DNA of 64,000 bases, filler included, from Malassezia furfur (taxonomy: Eukaryota): the NCBI GenBank assembly GCA_052055015.1. It is 3 parts of 3 records of this genome, joined end to end, with 100 filler letters (N's around TTAATTAATTAA, not from the genome) between each part and the next. Parts side by side here need not be neighbours in the genome. Positions count along the whole stretch, not along the records: positions 49,202 to 64,000 come from JBQJIT010000282.1; 2 more parts are not named here. One strand, written 5' to 3'. Positions 50,886 to 58,205 of the stretch are shown one piece after another. How positions within the stretch are numbered: the first letter of the stretch is position 1; every line of letters begins with the position of its first letter. Below the pieces are notes generated by a model. It saw only the letters and a list, made by a program, of their open reading frames with translations, made no database searches and was not told the DNA's origin. Position numbers and translations under genes: made by a program.

Positions 50886-53129
50886 CTACGGCCGAAACGT
50901 TACTTGGAAGAGGCTCGGTGGGCGCTCCTCGGCGGGCTTGGCAGCGTCTGCCGAGGGGAGCATGGCTGATGCATGCTCCGCAACATCGGCGTCGGCACTG
51001 AGCGAATGTACAACATCTCGGAGCGCCGCAGCCGCGCGGGCAGCGTCCGCCTGTGCGGGTACTGCCGCTTCGCCCGTCGGCGTACGCCGCGCATAGAGCA
51101 CGAGGTGCACGGGCGACCCCTCGTCCTCCAGCGACGCCACCAACAGGAAGCGCGACTGCAGGTCCGCGCCGTGAAGCTGCGTCGCGAGCTGAGTCACTGC
51201 CTCCGCGGGCAGCTCGGCGTCCTTGCGTGCCAAGAGCGGCGCGGCGAATTCGGCCGCCCACGCGTCGAGGTGGTGGGCATGCAGGTTGCGCATCAGCTCG
51301 ACGTCGAGGTGCGCGATGCGCCGTGCATCGCCTTGAGTGCCCGTGCATAGCGCGAGCACGCGCCGCGTGCGACGTGTCGAGGTACTGGACGCCGACAAGG
51401 AGCTGAGCGTCGGTGACGCTGAGGAGAGCGACGGCACCGACGTGTCGCTGCCTCCATCCGCATGCGCATGATCAGGCGTCGCGCTCCACGCACACTCCGC
51501 CTCGGGCTCGGTGGTGAGGGTGCACAGCACTGCCTCATTTTCCCGGCGACTCACGCGCAGCTGGACAAGTCCCTTGTGGTGCTCCTCGGCGCCGGCCAGC
51601 AGCTCGTGGAGCGGCGCCTGCCCCGCGCCATTCAGCTCTTGCAGCAGGTCCGCCGGGACGGTGCTTGAGGAACGCCGCACGAGCGCCATGCCGAGTAGCA
51701 CAAAGAGCGCCATCGCGTTGGGACACGCGTCGGCGGCCGGCTCGGCAGGGGGCGCGGCGGATGGCGCCGCAGCGGGTGCAGCGGCCGGCTCGGATGCGGA
51801 TGGCGCGGCGCCTGACGAGGCCGTATCGCTCGCCTGCTGCTGCAGATGCGCACGGAGCGCTGCGCACTCGCTCCGAGCCTGCTCGGCGTCTTTTCGTGCC
51901 TGCGCCGCCTCGGCGCGTGCCCTCTCGAGCTGCGCGTGTATGTCGTCGGGCGCCGGTGCCGCTGGTGTACCCTGATTCGCGGCCGCAGGTTTTGAAGCGT
52001 AGGTGTCATGATGGTCATAGTGGTTATCGAATAGAATCGCGCCCTGCTGCGAGATGAGCTGCTGGAAGACGGCGCGCACGTCCTCGCTCTCGTGGCGCAG
52101 CTGTGCACCGAGTGGCGTCGCACTCAGCACACGTTCTGCGCCGTTGGGCACACCGGTGGGACTCGCGCTGTTGGGTGCATGGCGCGCCGTGTCGAGGAGC
52201 GACTCGTACAGCAGCCACGCGAGCCGCGCGAGATGACGGCACTTGCCGCTCAGCTCTTCAAACTGCTCGCGCTTGCGCTGCCGCGAAAGGAATGCTGCAG
52301 CGCGGTTCTTCACGAGGCGCGCCTCGCGCTTGGTCAGTCCGGACGTATCGGGGGGAATAAACAGCGAAGAGTGTTTCGCCGAGGTATCAATCACCGGAAA
52401 CGGCTGGCCCGCCTCGGTCACCTGCGAGGCACTGGGCGGTGGCCGACGCGCGCCGCTCTGCGGCTTGCGCGCCGTGCGCTGCAGCTCGGCGGGGTCGGGC
52501 GAGACGCGCTTGCCGATCTCGGGCATCGTCACGGCGCGTGGCCGTGTGTCGATACCGGGGTGCGCTCCAGGGTGTCCAAGCTTGCGCCGCTTGTCGTCGG
52601 GCGATGCTCTGTACAGTGATTTTCCCGCATTCTCGTCCTTGAGAAGAAGCGCCAGCGGCGGTGCATCCGGGTCCGGCTTGGTGGGTAGCCCCACAAACCC
52701 CGTACGGTCCACGGACTCATGCAGCGGCCGCTCAGGCGCTGCAGACGGCGCCCAGATCGGTGAGTTTTGGAATGCATACGGCTCCGAGGGGCCCGTGGAT
52801 GCCGTCGAAGATACAGACGACGTCGAGTTGGTCGGTGCGCCCGTGGATGCCGCCGTGTGTGCGCCCGGCGAGCTTGCCCAGTCGAGCACCAGAGACGCAA
52901 TATCCTGCGCAGGTGCGGGCGGCTTCCCGAGCGGCATCGCACTGTTCAGCGCAAACGGCTGGATGAACCCAAACTGATTCGCCCCCACGTCGGGTGCGCC
53001 GGTTACCCCAGCGCACAGATCGGCGTGGATGAACGAGTCAAACTCATTGACGCCCGTGTCGGCGGACGGTGCACCCGTCGCCGTCGACGGCATCGAGCCG
53101 TAGGCGGCCCGCGCTACCGTGGGGTCCAT
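50886..53129 (-). CDS. bZIP transcription factor
   Basis: Basic region KREARLVKNRAAAFLSRQRKREQFEEL. Start at ATG 53129. Confidence 0.85.
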   Translation of the reverse strand: MDPTVARAAYGSMPSTATGAPSADTGVNEFDSFIHADLCAGVTGAPDVGANQFGFIQPFALNSAMPLGKPPAPAQDIASLVLDWASSPGAHTAASTGAPTNSTSSVSSTASTGPSEPYAFQNSPIWAPSAAPERPLHESVDRTGFVGLPTKPDPDAPPLALLLKDENAGKSLYRASPDDKRRKLGHPGAHPGIDTRPRAVTMPEIGKRVSPDPAELQRTARKPQSGARRPPPSASQVTEAGQPFPVIDTSAKHSSLFIPPDTSGLTKREARLVKNRAAAFLSRQRKREQFEELSGKCRHLARLAWLLYESLLDTARHAPNSASPTGVPNGAERVLSATPLGAQLRHESEDVRAVFQQLISQQGAILFDNHYDHHDTYASKPAAANQGTPAAPAPDDIHAQLERARAEAAQARKDAEQARSECAALRAHLQQQASDTASSGAAPSASEPAAAPAAAPSAAPPAEPAADACPNAMALFVLLGMALVRRSSSTVPADLLQELNGAGQAPLHELLAGAEEHHKGLVQLRVSRRENEAVLCTLTTEPEAECAWSATPDHAHADGGSDTSVPSLSSASPTLSSLSASSTSTRRTRRVLALCTGTQGDARRIAHLDVELMRNLHAHHLDAWAAEFAAPLLARKDAELPAEAVTQLATQLHGADLQSRFLLVASLEDEGSPVHLVLYARRTPTGEAAVPAQADAARAAAALRDVVHSLSADADVAEHASAMLPSADAAKPAEERPPSLFQVTFRP

Positions 53130-53257: not shown

Positions 53258-54236
53258 CTAGCGGAAGCCGTCGGCGCGGCGCGCGTCGATGCCGTACTCG
53301 CCAAGCGCGGCGCTCAGGTCGTCCATAGTCAGGACCGTACGCGTGCGGTCCTGCATGTCAGTCAAATCCACATACCCGTCCAGCGCCCGGTCGCGCACGG
53401 CTGGGGCCGGCATTTGTCCGAATCCGCGCGTATTGGAACGCGTCCGACGCAATGTCCGCCACAAACTTTTCCGTAGCCAGCGCAAGTAGACGCTTGCTGC
53501 ATGTAAGCAGGAGAATACGTACAGGCGCACATCGTTGCTCTGGAAACCCGCACGCTCCAGGTAGAAGTCGGTCACCTCATCGGGGATCTGTCGCGTCAGG
53601 CTCATGTGAACGCACCAGCGGCGAGAACTGCTCCAACATGCGCAGCATGTCGGCCAGCGAACGGTCCTTGCGCGCTTCCTCGGCAGCGCGCGCATCCAGC
53701 GTACTCGGAACCGGCGCAGCCTCGACGTACCGCGCAAGGTCGGCCGGCGTCGCAACACTTTCGACGGACGTCCGCTCTGCGTCCGTCACCAGCGCAAACG
53801 CGTGCGTCTCAAAAAAGACAGACAACTCGGCCAGCTCGGTTTCCGGGGTAATGACGCGGTAGGTCTCGGGCTTCGTGGGCGCCTCCTTGTTCCCGGCGAA
53901 CGGGCGCTGCAACTCACGGAGGGGCGTGTCCAGCCGCTCCTCGGTCTCGGCAATCACGAGATCCACCATCTCAACGAATCCACGCAGCTTCTGGTCGTCC
54001 ACAATCAGTATACATTGGCCGCCATGCGCGCGCGCCATCGGCAGGGCCGACGACACGGGGGTGTCTGGCGACGCCGTCGCAGGCGGCAAAAGGTTCAGTT
54101 GGCGCACCGTGGCGCCATGGAATTGTCGCTTCAGCGCATCGCTCACTTCGAGCGACTCATCCACCGTGGGCGTCTTCTGGGGCGCAGGCACGCGGGTCTC
54201 TGGCCCCGGCGCGTCCTCCTCCATTTTGTCGCCCAT
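53258..54236 (-). CDS. TAF10: TFIID/SAGA subunit Taf10 with an in-frame N-terminal CBS-domain pair
   Basis: PL/IPDEVTDFYLERAGF...RL/KRLLALATEKFVADIASDAFQY...VLTMDDLSAALGEYGI. Introns at 53588-53615 (28), 53497-53522 (26) and 53351-53375 (25). Exon 1 encodes CBS-like repeats. Confidence 0.88.
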
Positions 54237-54315
54237 CGTCGCGGCGGTTGGCGATCGGCGTGCGATCGGGCGCCTACTCCGCACTGCGCTCCACTCAGCG
54301 CGCCGCTCGAGAACC

Positions 54316-55119
54316 ATGCAGCGCTCGGGCGTCAATGCGAGCTCGGTGATGGGCCTCAAGGCCGAGCTTCATGCAGCACGACAACGTGCAGAGCAGAAGC
54401 GCGAGGTGCCTAACAAACGCGCACGCACCGACAAACTGCGCTTCGCCGAGGCCGCGCATCCCGACACGCCGAAGGAGGCACCCAGCGACGACCGCCTCGC
54501 AGTGTCGCGCGCCAAGCTGCAGCGCAAGGCACGCGCGTATGCACAGATGCAAGAAGGGCGCGCGGCGGGCCACGCGGCCGAGGGGCTCGTGGATTGGGAC
54601 CTCAAAACGGACGACGGCGTCCACGACACTGCGTCGGACGCCAGCGACGACGACCGACCGGCGTCGCCGCCCGCCGACGACCCAGACGACCCACTCGTGG
54701 AGCATGTCGACGAGTTTGGACGTACGCGCATGGTCCGCCGAAGCGAACTGCCGCGTGCGCCCACACCGGAGGAGGACGAGCCCGAGGCCATCTATGGGCC
54801 AGCGACGTCTTTCCCCGTGTACCAACGCGCGCCGCACCAACTCGAGGTGCGCCCGCCCCGCCCGCTCTCGCCGGAGCCGGAACACTTTGATGCGGACTGG
54901 GAGATTCGTACGCGCGGTGCTGCCTTCTACAAGTTTGATGCCAACGAAGACGTACGCCGCGCTCAGCAGCGCGACCTGCAGGCGCTGCGCGACGAGACGC
55001 AGGCGCGGCGCGCCGAGCGCGGCTCCGCACCCGTATCTGAGTGGCGCACGACGCTGGGTGCCGCGCGTCGGGCGGCGCGGCAGCGCGTCATCGATGCGCA
55101 CCGCACATCGGTTCGGTAG
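54316..55119 (+). CDS. CCDC174/DUF4078-like protein
   Basis: SVMGLKAEL, LQRKARAY, VDEFGRTR, HFDADWEIRTRGAAFYKF. Confidence 0.75.
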   Translation: MQRSGVNASSVMGLKAELHAARQRAEQKREVPNKRARTDKLRFAEAAHPDTPKEAPSDDRLAVSRAKLQRKARAYAQMQEGRAAGHAAEGLVDWDLKTDDGVHDTASDASDDDRPASPPADDPDDPLVEHVDEFGRTRMVRRSELPRAPTPEEDEPEAIYGPATSFPVYQRAPHQLEVRPPRPLSPEPEHFDADWEIRTRGAAFYKFDANEDVRRAQQRDLQALRDETQARRAERGSAPVSEWRTTLGAARRAARQRVIDAHRTSVR

Positions 55120-55152: not shown

Positions 55153-57030
55153 CTACGACGACGGCTCCTCTAAAAACGACAGACATCCCGGGCTGCACCC
55201 GCGCCACAACAGCGGGAGGCACCCACTGTGTTGCATCTGTGCATGCGCGTCGGTTGCGCCCGCAAGCAGCTCGGTGCCCTGCTTGGCGACACGCACGCCG
55301 GCGACGTGCGAAACCCACTCGAGCCGCTCCTCGTACGGCTGCGCAAACAGCGGCGCGTCGTCGATCGCCGACTCGGCGACAGGCCAGTCGCTCACGCCGT
55401 CTGTCGAGGGCGCCGACTCCCGCGCGTTGGGACACCGGTTGAAGTAGACGTTCTTGCACGCGTCCTCCTCGGCATCGAGCAGGTGGTCCACGTCGATCGC
55501 GTCGGGCAGCGACTCGACCGATGCCTCGCTGTCGGGCGACCCAGTGGGATGGAAGTGCGCACCATCGTACCACACATCAGGGCCGCGCCGCGTGCGCTGG
55601 TTGCGGTGCGGCAGATTGGTCGGCGTGCCCCACAGACGCAAGGCACTGCGCCGCGCCGCCTCGAGGCGCGCGACCATGTGCACATCGAGCGTGTATTGCA
55701 GCGAGCGGAGGCACCCCGTCTCGTACTGTTCGAGCAGCATCGCGCCGTCCTCGGTGCCCAGCAGGCGACGGAGGCACACCTCGGCGAGCGTCGGCATCCC
55801 GTGCCGTACGAGCGGCGCAAGGGCGCGCACCATCGGTGCCATGTCCTCCTTGTCACGCGGCGGGAGGTGCGTTTCGGTGCGTGCGCGCTGCAGGGTGCGC
55901 GGCACGCGCGGCGGGCCCATGACGGTGCGCTGGCTGTTGCGGGCGCGTTGGGAGATGCGTGCGTTGGCGGGGATGGGCAGGAACGGGTTGGGGACGTAGG
56001 TAAACGTGTCGAGCTCTAGGCGCTGGATCTCGGCAGGGAGGTAGGTGAGCATATTACCGCCCACATTGAGCTCGCGCAGGGCATGCAGCTCACCGATCGC
56101 GGGCGGCAGGTGCGTGAGTGCATTCTTCCGGAGCGATAGCACGCCCAGGTTGCGCAGCTGGAACAGCGCGCTGGGCAGGCGCGTCAGCCGGTTGTCCCAC
56201 AGATAACACTGCACCAGATTCCGCGCGCGGTCGTGCATCGAGTCGGTGCGCTTGCCCGAGTCGGCGCGCCGCGGCGCAATCGCGACGTAGCTGTGCAGAT
56301 CGCCAATCAGCGGGGGGATATGGGTCAGACTACAGCCGCCAAGCAGCAGCGCCGGCGCCTCGCGGCCCTCGTCAAAGATCCGGTTGATCAGCGTCGGCCA
56401 ATGCACCTGCCCGGGCATGTTGGTGCTTAGCGCGCGGCGCATGAAGCGGGGCGGAGGCGGCGCGGGATCGTGCTGTTCCCATGCGCTGAGTGCCGCCGTA
56501 TCGGTGCGCGTGCGCGTAAGCTTCTTGGGCGACGTGCCGGTAAGACGCACGCGCTGCGATAGCGGCGGATCGCTGGGCCGCGCGCCCAGTCCACTCAGCG
56601 GATCGGTGCCTGCCGACTCCGTGCGGGAGAAGGCACGCGTCTGCGGCAGAAAGGGCACGCTCTCGACCGAGCTGCTCATCGCATCGTCCGAGCTGGGCGG
56701 GGGGGCTTCTTCGTCCGACTCAAAAAACTGGCCGAGTACATCGGCATCGCCCGACGCGGCGGGTGCATCGCTGGGCACCAGCGTCAGGTCTGCCAACCCT
56801 ACATCGGCGTGCCGACGCGCAGGTGCTGTCGCCGAGCGCCCAAATTCGCGTCGCGGGGGCAGCACAAGGTGCTTGGCCGAGCCCGCAAAAGGGTCGATGC
56901 TTGCATGCGACGTGGCACGCGCGAACGTCGGGCTCGATGGCGGCGATACCCAGTCGGCTGCTGTACTACTGGGGGGCGGCGACGAGGAGAAGTCGGACGT
57001 GCCTGCCGGCACGCGAAACGCGCCAGACAT
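55153..57030 (-). CDS. Leucine-rich-repeat protein
   Basis: LWDNRLTRLP, LSLRKNALTHLP, LNVGGNMLTYLP repeats; C-terminal CSPGC. Confidence 0.8.
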   Translation of the reverse strand: MSGAFRVPAGTSDFSSSPPPSSTAADWVSPPSSPTFARATSHASIDPFAGSAKHLVLPPRREFGRSATAPARRHADVGLADLTLVPSDAPAASGDADVLGQFFESDEEAPPPSSDDAMSSSVESVPFLPQTRAFSRTESAGTDPLSGLGARPSDPPLSQRVRLTGTSPKKLTRTRTDTAALSAWEQHDPAPPPPRFMRRALSTNMPGQVHWPTLINRIFDEGREAPALLLGGCSLTHIPPLIGDLHSYVAIAPRRADSGKRTDSMHDRARNLVQCYLWDNRLTRLPSALFQLRNLGVLSLRKNALTHLPPAIGELHALRELNVGGNMLTYLPAEIQRLELDTFTYVPNPFLPIPANARISQRARNSQRTVMGPPRVPRTLQRARTETHLPPRDKEDMAPMVRALAPLVRHGMPTLAEVCLRRLLGTEDGAMLLEQYETGCLRSLQYTLDVHMVARLEAARRSALRLWGTPTNLPHRNQRTRRGPDVWYDGAHFHPTGSPDSEASVESLPDAIDVDHLLDAEEDACKNVYFNRCPNARESAPSTDGVSDWPVAESAIDDAPLFAQPYEERLEWVSHVAGVRVAKQGTELLAGATDAHAQMQHSGCLPLLWRGCSPGCLSFLEEPSS

Positions 57031-57086
57031 CGCCGAAGCCGAAACCCGCGGGGGACGCGTCGCGTCGAAATCAAAGGGAATCCAAG

Positions 57087-58205
57087 CTACTCCACATGCC
57101 CGTGCGAATCGCCCAGCATCAGCTGCAGCAGCCGCGGGGTGATCGAACCCAACACTACCAACGAAAGACAGTGGGTCGTCCGGTGTGTCAAACTCACATC
57201 CTGGGATGGCATCTGTACACGCATCCCTGACACGCGCGGCGCAGGCGACATGGTGCGCGCATGAATCGGGTGGTCATGATCGAGCGGGTGGTGGGAATGC
57301 CCGCCGGCATGGGTGCCTTCGCTCGCGTCCGCCGTGAGCTCGAGCACGGCGTGCATCGCGACATAGAGGAACGTGCCACCAGAAAAGCTCAGGATCGCAC
57401 CAATGTCGCGCGCATTGATCGTCGCTTCCGCTCCGCCCGTGACGCGGAAGACGAACTGGATGGCCGCATACGTCGAGATGGCACCCACGGGCGTCGCAAG
57501 ACTGAACACCAGGATTGCCCACCGGATATCGGTCCGACTCAGCTGCAGCGACATGAGTAATGTACAGGTGCCGATCGACGCGGGTGCTTTGTGGACCATG
57601 ATGGCCAGCACCACGACAATGCGCAGCGAGGAGTCGGGGCTGTCGACCGACGCACCCAGTGCAATGCCGTCGGCCAGGGCGTGGATAATTAGGCCAAGTA
57701 GGCTGCTCAGCGCGCCCAGGAAGTTGGTGCTGGACGGTAGCCAGCCGTTATTTTGCTCTTCATCAATCGAGTACCAGGGCACGTCATCGTCCGTCTGTTC
57801 CAGGTCCGAGACGCGGTTGTGAGCGTGCGAGTGTGTGCCGCGCCGCTGCATTTTTGCCATCATTTGCCGGTCGACGCTGGGTTAGGCACAGGGCATAACA
57901 TACATGAACATTAACAAAAAGCCCGACAGCAGGCACGCTGCAATCAAGTCTTTCGAGGTGAGGTGCGTATTGGATTCCCGCACCGGCTCGCCGTCGCGGC
58001 ATAGGTTGCCCCCTTTGTATACGCTCGCAATGCCCTCGGGAATCACCACCGTAAGCGCTGCGCCGAGTAGCAGTCCCGAGCCCCACAGCTCCAGCATTCG
58101 CAGTCCATTCCGCGAGAGCTGAAAGAAGAGGGGCAGCGTCCCGATGGCGTAGGTACCCAACGCCATCGCGACGCACACCCCCGCCAGCCCCACGACGTCC
58201 CACAT
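57087..58205 (-). CDS. ZIP-family metal transporter (Atx2/ZIP9-like)
   Basis: GLLLGAALTVVIPEG, GLIIHALADGIALG, HKAPA, FSGGTFLYVA and His-rich loops. 27-nt intron at 57877-57903. Confidence 0.9.

Follow-up and report, generated by a model that had tools for sequence, protein, structure and literature searches.

Does Malassezia furfur make its TAF10 as one chain with a pair of CBS domains, and if it does, what might such a pair do on the complexes that contain TAF10? The question is raised by a gene on the minus strand at positions 54236-53258 of a 64,000-nucleotide stretch of M. furfur DNA (assembly GCA_052055015.1; the window in the following, with a G+C content of 63.9%), in the part that stems from record JBQJIT010000282.1. 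The original prediction for this gene was a reading frame that runs without a stop from an ATG at 54236 through two CBS-like repeats into a TAF10-like stretch, and two alternatives were offered for it, a gene fusion and a metabolite-sensing TAF10. These alternatives are the origin and the possible function of one thing. Comparison with relatives indicates that the fusion is not a gene-model artefact, and it is very probably real and translated as one chain.

The gene has four exons and a product of 299 amino acids. Joined, the exons amount to 900 nt, that is 299 codons and a stop codon, with no stop inside, and the predicted span of 53258-54236 coincides exactly with this coding sequence, stop codon counted in. 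Exon 1 (53616-54236) begins with the ATG at 54236 and encodes, in a single stop-free frame of 207 codons, an N-terminal tail, the CBS pair, a linker and the first TAF10 helix; the frame reaches 53616 and is followed by the splice donor GTGCGT at 53615. The passage from CBS-like repeats to a TAF10-like stretch can be seen in its translation, and both peptide strings quoted with the prediction are present there. With the M. furfur protein GLX27_002974 (P0003), the exon 1 product shares 99% identity. Exon 2 (53523-53587) encodes the region of TAF10 histone fold helix 1 (starting with IPDEVTDFYL), exon 3 (53376-53496) the central histone fold, and exon 4 (53258-53350) the last TAF10 helix together with the stop codon (53258-53260).

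The three introns are 28, 26 and 25 nt long (53588-53615, 53497-53522 and 53351-53375, all on the minus strand). All run from GT to AG and have a branch-site-like motif near the 3' end, which is CTGAC in introns 1 and 3, and CTTAC in intron 2. Lengths of 25-28 nt are normal for the genus Malassezia; for the curated M. sympodialis annotation, a mean intron of 30 bp and RNA-seq support for 99% of introns are reported (PMC5389616). The junction at intron 1 is the same in the NCBI M. furfur model (P0003), the residues of exon 2 are identical in this model and in the M. japonica orthologue (P0005), and splicing of intron 3 gives a C-terminus identical to that of the M. japonica protein. The public M. 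furfur model (274 amino acids) runs through the 25-nt intron 3 and stops within it, so that its final five residues are intron read-through and the last TAF10 helix is lost.

By homology, the C-terminal part of the product is a bona fide TAF10 histone fold. Taken alone, exon 3 matches the Pfam TAF10 profile (PF03540) at 36.4 bits, above the cut-off of 28, and exon 4 at 26.7 bits, just below it. Full-length fused relatives (P0015, P0019 and P0020) reach 115.9-129.3 bits, and the profile is precomputed on the near-identical P0003. The M. japonica orthologue, which is identical to the window product at 204 of 301 aligned positions, finds solved TFIID/SAGA TAF10 chains in phmmer searches with E-values of 8.2e-29 (6tb4_J), 7.1e-27 (6t9i_G) and 7.1e-22 (human TAF10 chains). 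These alignments begin at its residues 173-192, right after the CBS pair. In M. furfur, the corresponding start of homology lies at residues 186-207 (53616-53681), in the long helix that precedes the histone fold, and AlphaFold2 predicts a helix at residues 179-202. The likeness to TAF10 (yeast Taf10/TAF25, human TAF10/TAFII30), in profile and solved chains, comprises the C-terminal 115 residues or so. Among Malassezia species, conservation is nearly complete at the level of single residues in the helix that leads into the fold and in the last helix, with 24 of 28 columns of exon 4 invariant. Records of M. globosa and M. sympodialis label the fused gene TAF10, which is annotation only.

What precedes the fold is different. 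Canonical TAF10 has a short, disordered N-terminal tail. The solved chains have 35-113 residues ahead of the matched region, whereas M. furfur has a folded Bateman module (CBS pair) of predicted length about 175 residues in this place. According to the main text of a 2019 survey of TFIID, TAF10 is histone-fold-only throughout eukaryotes, has TAF8, TAF3 and Spt7 as histone-fold partners, and is a subunit common to TFIID and SAGA (PMC6672047).

That the first 175 residues or so form a CBS pair, as originally predicted, has the support of a profile match, the predicted fold and homology. CBS motif 1 (residues about 39-98; 53943-54122) contains a match to the Pfam CBS profile (PF00571) at residues 51-95 with 30.2 bits (E 6e-07; gathering cut-off 24), and 18 of its 60 columns are invariant in six Malassezia sequences. 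CBS motif 2 (residues about 126-173; 53718-53861) carries the FALVTD and VATPADL motifs, and the same repeat is matched by Pfam in the orthologues P0017 (residues 139-177) and P0016 (residues 116-160). The proposed check of both halves with hidden Markov models has therefore given a match to the CBS profile as well as the TAF10 profile, and the outcome of no CBS match did not occur.

The AlphaFold2 model of the exon 1 product, for which an alignment of 36 sequences was the input, has a mean predicted local distance difference test score (pLDDT) of 86.2 and a predicted template modelling score of 0.72. It consists of two beta-alpha-beta-beta-alpha units, both mostly with pLDDT above 90, followed by the helix at 179-202. 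In motif 1, strands are predicted at residues 53-55, 76-80 and 83-88, and helices at 61-70 and 90-98; in motif 2 (as a unit, about residues 128-173), helices are predicted at 135-141 and 164-173, and strands at 148-151 and 157-162. Foldseek returned 404 matches in the PDB at E <= 0.001, and all matches listed were CBS-pair proteins. The top matches were regulatory domains of cystathionine beta-synthase with probability 1.00, among them 6xwl_E (4.7e-09), human 4l28_D (5.7e-09) and 4uuu_B, the isolated human regulatory domain with S-adenosylmethionine (SAM; 2.9e-08), the range extending to 4.5e-08. A two-copy complex prediction for residues 30-176, made without an alignment, gave a score of 0.00 and a mark of 0.32, and weighs neither for nor against dimerisation.

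The fusion is not confined to the window. Each of the 13 matches to the exon 1 product comes from this gene in a Malassezia-like sequence (the species named are M. furfur, M. japonica and M. psittaci), and those that extend far enough run on into TAF10. Searched with a profile, 1.84 billion representatives yielded 1051 proteins at E <= 0.001, of which the top-scoring ones cover both halves. From 150 listed of these 1051, we picked 30 that were longest or had a match reaching the CBS region, and in 8 of the 30 Pfam detected both CBS and TAF10. In the ESM Atlas cluster (82 members), TAF10 is present in 100% and CBS in 85%. By name, the carriers span four orders: in Malasseziales M. furfur, M. 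japonica, M. psittaci, M. caprae, M. sympodialis, M. globosa and M. cuniculi, and in three orders of Exobasidiomycetes Meira miltonrushii and Exobasidium rhododendri (Exobasidiales), Tilletia horrida, T. indica and T. maclaganii (Tilletiales), and Tilletiaria anomala (Georgefischeriales). The orthologues found in Malassezia are fused as in M. furfur, which answers the Malassezia part of the comparison that had been suggested. In public databases, the fused proteins bear names of the type "CBS domain-containing protein" or "TFIID subunit 10". A 351-amino-acid record labelled as the fern Adiantum nelumboides (P0164) shares a 90% cluster with the CBS-TAF10 of Meira miltonrushii (P0019), and is most simply explained as a fungal (endophyte) contig within the fern assembly.

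Five metagenome loci also encode CBS-TAF10. In three of them (L001, L004 and L005) the protein is specified by a single uninterrupted open reading frame from ATG to stop, so that the architecture is independent of any intron call. L001 is Malassezia-like, L004 and L005 match the T. maclaganii cluster, and L002 and L003 have one or more introns, within the TAF10 part only. Intron content varies in the clade, from three in the M. furfur window to none in L001 and the Tilletia-like loci.

The junction between the halves is in frame in every fused protein compared, with 41-71 residues between the aspartate of CBS motif 2 and the end of exon 1. No conserved methionine was found between CBS motif 2 and the histone fold among these proteins. 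M. caprae has no methionine at all from CBS motif 1 to the end of exon 1, and the sole methionine of M. psittaci in this region lies within the last helix of CBS motif 2. The statement that the TAF10 homology begins with no separate ATG is not literally true for M. furfur, because Met197 and Met200 lie just inside the start of the homology; neither methionine is conserved in relatives. Mean pairwise identity among six Malassezia sequences is 0.54 for CBS motif 1, 0.41 for CBS motif 2, 0.21 for the N-terminal tail, 0.25 for the linker (the 12 residues that join the Bateman module to the TAF10 homology; 53682-53717) and 0.82-0.92 for the TAF10 part. The protein of the window is 39-55% identical to those of other Malassezia species, a distance at which synonymous sites should be saturated. 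Judging by these identities, the CBS module is clearly more constrained than the flanking tail and linker.

Where does the module come from? When the N-terminal 190 residues of the Meira protein served as the query, the matches comprised fused forms as well as stand-alone proteins of 146-195 amino acids at 36-48% identity; the stand-alone proteins are 23-34% identical to the M. furfur window module. They occur in Agaricomycotina (Cantharellus (P0218), Amylocystis (P0219), Collybiopsis, Termitomyces, Dioszegia and others), in Pucciniomycotina (Rhodotorula (P0233), Sporobolomyces and Rhodosporidiobolus) and in Ascomycota (Elsinoe (P0226) and Sphaceloma). They align across the whole module and have KYRGATVEDL, FALVTD and VAT..DL in common with it, which identifies the module, at the level of sequence, as orthologous to a stand-alone fungal CBS-pair protein. 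The stand-alone proteins differ in having no TAF10 part, and the names returned for them record no function. In the alignment they stop just past the last helix of CBS motif 2, where the fused proteins go on into the linker and TAF10.

All named matches in these searches are fused if they stem from Ustilaginomycotina and stand-alone if they stem from elsewhere. The simplest history is one fusion of an existing small CBS-pair gene to TAF10 within Ustilaginomycotina. The original prediction had considered that genome compaction fused two neighbouring genes. Fusion of a once stand-alone CBS-pair protein agrees with our data; its origin as a by-product of compaction in Malassezia does not, because the fusion is also found in Meira and in the much larger genomes of Tilletia and Exobasidium. 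In Naganishia friedmannii, a CBS-pair-like gene (P0229, locus tag ending in 3551) and TAF10 (P0070, locus tag ending in 3523) are located on one contig of 768,714 bp, 28 locus tags apart. They are linked, not adjacent, which hints against neighbouring parent genes.

As to function, the nearest solved relative by sequence is again the regulatory domain of human cystathionine beta-synthase, which the stand-alone orthologue from Amylocystis (P0219) matches at 3.1e-06 (4uuu_A). The Bateman domain of cystathionine beta-synthase (in the human enzyme residues about 410-545; 4UUU and 4PCU) is the best match to the module in structure and in sequence. The SAM site of the human enzyme is described as consisting of FDQ at 443-445 in CBS-1, GVVTAID at 532-538 in CBS-2, and Pro422/Leu423 of the linker, and Phe443, Asp444, Gln445 and Asp538 are reported to be required for binding (PMC4276868). 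We mapped these positions by alignment onto 35 sequences, 29 from outside Malassezia and 6 from Malassezia; P0215, in which the CBS2 region is broken, was excluded from the counts. The equivalent of Asp538 (residue 166 in M. furfur), which is the conserved ribose-binding aspartate of the G-h-h-T-x-x-D motif in CBS motif 2, is aspartate in all sequences (29/29 and 6/6). The equivalent of Thr535 (residue 163) is threonine and that of Phe443 phenylalanine or tyrosine in every sequence from outside Malassezia (29/29 each). Pro51, in the stretch that is matched by alignment to the human Pro422/Leu423 segment, is the same in all 36 aligned sequences, and the FALVTD strand shows hardly any variation. 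Aspartate occupies the canonical ribose position of CBS motif 1 in 6/6 Malassezia sequences as opposed to 0/29 others.

The likeness to the human domain thus lies in the GVVTAID-type Thr/Asp motif, the linker proline and, outside Malassezia only, the aromatic residue of FDQ. The FDQ motif itself is not kept: the residues are Gly-Gln-Cys in M. furfur and other Malassezia, Y-S/E-Q in other fused proteins and F/Y-S-I/H in the stand-alone proteins, and none of the 35 sequences retains the SAM-specific Asp444 and Gln445 as such. In our reading, the family overall has the hallmarks of an adenosyl-ligand pocket, with SAM as a lead rather than a conclusion. For Malassezia we read the same alignment as a pocket that has been remodelled rather than simply lost, and the ligand or its site probably differs from that of Exobasidiomycetes and the stand-alone proteins.

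A fragment of cystathionine beta-synthase itself was considered and rejected: the protein is not such an enzyme, because it has neither a PALP domain nor the FDQ motif. Pfam fails to match PALP, the catalytic domain, to exon 1 even when E-values of up to 10 are allowed, and only about 38 residues precede CBS motif 1. Some stand-alone relatives are named cystathionine beta-synthase in databases.

Together, these data suggest a model, to which we give a probability of about 0.5 as a whole: the M. furfur gene would be the TAF10 of this lineage, with a ligand-responsive Bateman module exposed on TFIID and SAGA. The folded module takes the place of the usual N-terminal tail. The C-terminal histone fold would have the partners it has elsewhere, TAF8 or TAF3 in TFIID and Spt7 in SAGA, and because TAF10 is common to both complexes, the module should be tethered to the surface of both. 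A small ligand of adenosyl type may sit in the cleft between the two CBS motifs, and a ligand-dependent change in shape or pairing may modulate the assembly, nuclear import or activity of the complexes that contain TAF10, by which general transcription or histone acetylation would be coupled to methyl-donor or energy status. Malassezia has lost the ancestral aromatic platform, and an aspartate has appeared at the ribose position of its CBS motif 1. Taken by itself, the ligand-sensing regulatory role is tentative, and we rate it somewhat below even odds. Plant CBSX proteins and AMPK gamma/Snf4 follow the same logic of a Bateman add-on, and CBSX2 is among the Foldseek matches. The cyanobacterial CBS-CP12 fusion shares it too, in that a Bateman module serves as a ligand-responsive addition to a protein that acts by protein contacts (PMC6142219). 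All three differ from CBS-TAF10 in their partners and lineages, which are unrelated, and none is a subunit of a general transcription factor.

Several observations weigh against this model. Only the first of the two CBS motifs passes Pfam in the M. furfur window protein. The equivalent of Phe443 is glycine in all six Malassezia sequences, that of Thr535 is threonine in four of them, serine in one and glutamate in one, and human Asp444 is replaced by serine, glutamate or glycine in the other fused proteins and mostly by serine in the stand-alone proteins. Because of the changes at Phe443 and Thr535 in Malassezia, and because Asp444 is not kept, SAM in particular is not supported. A TAF10-only isoform could be made in M. 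furfur, because of Met197 and Met200, and TAF10 is absent from one supplementary file of the M. sympodialis proteogenomics paper (PMC5389616). Finally, Parajaminaea (Microstromatales) has an annotated TAF10 of 200 amino acids without the module, and no named Ustilaginomycetes (Ustilago, Sporisorium or similar) appeared among the search matches or in 30 name look-ups, where several fused matches were nameless. For these two reasons, the distribution within the subphylum is either patchy or incompletely sampled.

The alternative that survives best accepts the fusion and makes the module passive: it may serve dimerisation, help an unstable TAF10 fold as a handle for solubility or chaperones, or offer a docking or import surface, with a pocket that is possibly decaying, at least in Malassezia. 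Many CBS pairs have no demonstrated ligand. The loss of the aromatic platform in all six Malassezia sequences and of the threonine of CBS motif 2 in two species would fit this alternative, as would the recognition of one repeat only by Pfam in the M. furfur protein and the much faster evolution of the module than of TAF10 (identities of 0.41-0.54 vs 0.82-0.92). However, constraint on the module is clearly above that on the adjoining tail and linker, the ribose-binding aspartate of CBS motif 2 is kept in 35/35 sequences, and the FALVTD strand has hardly changed. Moreover, the gain of an aspartate at the ribose position of CBS motif 1 in Malassezia (6/6 vs 0/29 elsewhere) argues for remodelling of the site rather than its decay. 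We consider a passive module unlikely, at roughly a quarter of the possibilities.

A second alternative is that the working TAF10 is a separate short product from an internal promoter or start, and that the continuous frame is tolerated read-through of genes that were once adjacent. The two in-frame methionines at the start of the TAF10 homology in M. furfur would suit it, as would the tiny intergenic distances (79 bp to the divergent gene upstream), and fusion artefacts among Malassezia transcript models have been reported (PMC5389616). The comparison with relatives speaks against it, and makes it very improbable. The stop that follows the last CBS2 helix in the stand-alone orthologues is gone in every fused lineage, with the frame kept over spacings of 41-71 residues from the CBS2 aspartate to the end of exon 1; no methionine is conserved, and M. 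caprae has none to start from anywhere from CBS motif 1 up to the last exon; and L001, L004 and L005 are intronless single reading frames. In addition, a fused model of 302 amino acids was kept in the M. sympodialis annotation, which was manually curated under guidance of RNA-seq and peptides (PMC5389616).

For IMP dehydrogenase, binding of nucleic acids by the Bateman domain and a role of this domain in transcription have been reported. By this sole analogy, and from its position on a promoter-bound complex, it is conceivable that the module is a surface that binds DNA or RNA or recruits another factor rather than reporting a metabolite, but no feature we examined points there, the nearest solved relatives are ligand-binding regulatory domains and conservation falls on the residues of the ligand cleft. 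We regard this reading as very improbable.

The gene has close neighbours. Upstream, a gap of 79 bp (54237-54315) separates its ATG from that of a divergent gene on the plus strand (54316-55119; ATG at 54316) with matches to DUF4078 (58.8 bits) and CCDC174 GRSR (32 bits). The 5' region common to CBS-TAF10 and this CCDC174/DUF4078-like gene is very short. The ATG of the CCDC174-like gene shares a CATG palindrome with a further ATG (54317), which lies upstream in the CBS-TAF10 frame and is unused in orthologues with N-termini. Beyond the divergent gene, at 55153-57273 on the minus strand, follows an open frame of 706 codons with leucine-rich repeats (LRR_8, 37.6 bits). Downstream, about 130 bp past the TAF10 stop, the next gene (50886-53129, minus strand) encodes 747 amino acids with a weak match to bZIP_1 (27.5 bits; cut-off 27.6).

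The original prediction had come with the remark that no CBS-TAF10 was known to have been described. Among the papers listed for TAF10 or TFIID with a CBS or Bateman domain, and for TAF10 in Malassezia, we likewise found no publication that describes this architecture, and the main text of the 2019 TFIID survey mentions neither CBS nor Ustilago nor Malassezia (PMC6672047). A conserved lineage with fused proteins is an exception to the view of TAF10 as an invariant, histone-fold-only part of TFIID and SAGA that the same text conveys (PMC6672047). The nearest solved relatives of the module bind SAM, and the fusion suggests a concrete, testable link from metabolism to basal transcription and chromatin acetylation. 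It also provides a first functional lead for a widespread and unstudied family of small fungal CBS-pair proteins. By Rosetta-stone logic, the stand-alone protein may even be a partner of TAF10, TFIID or SAGA that is controlled by a ligand and has escaped notice, and the fused module may report SAM or another adenosyl metabolite directly to these complexes without a signalling cascade; this more far-reaching idea we regard as unlikely.

Malassezia species are the dominant fungi of the skin and are now amenable to transformation, and Tilletia and Exobasidium cause disease in plants. In all these fungi, a lineage-specific domain on an essential factor could be a marker or a handle for basic study. 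If sensing of SAM or another adenosyl compound were true, these fungi would have a small-molecule sensor inside the core general transcription machinery, and promoter recognition or histone acetylation would track their methyl-donor or energy status.

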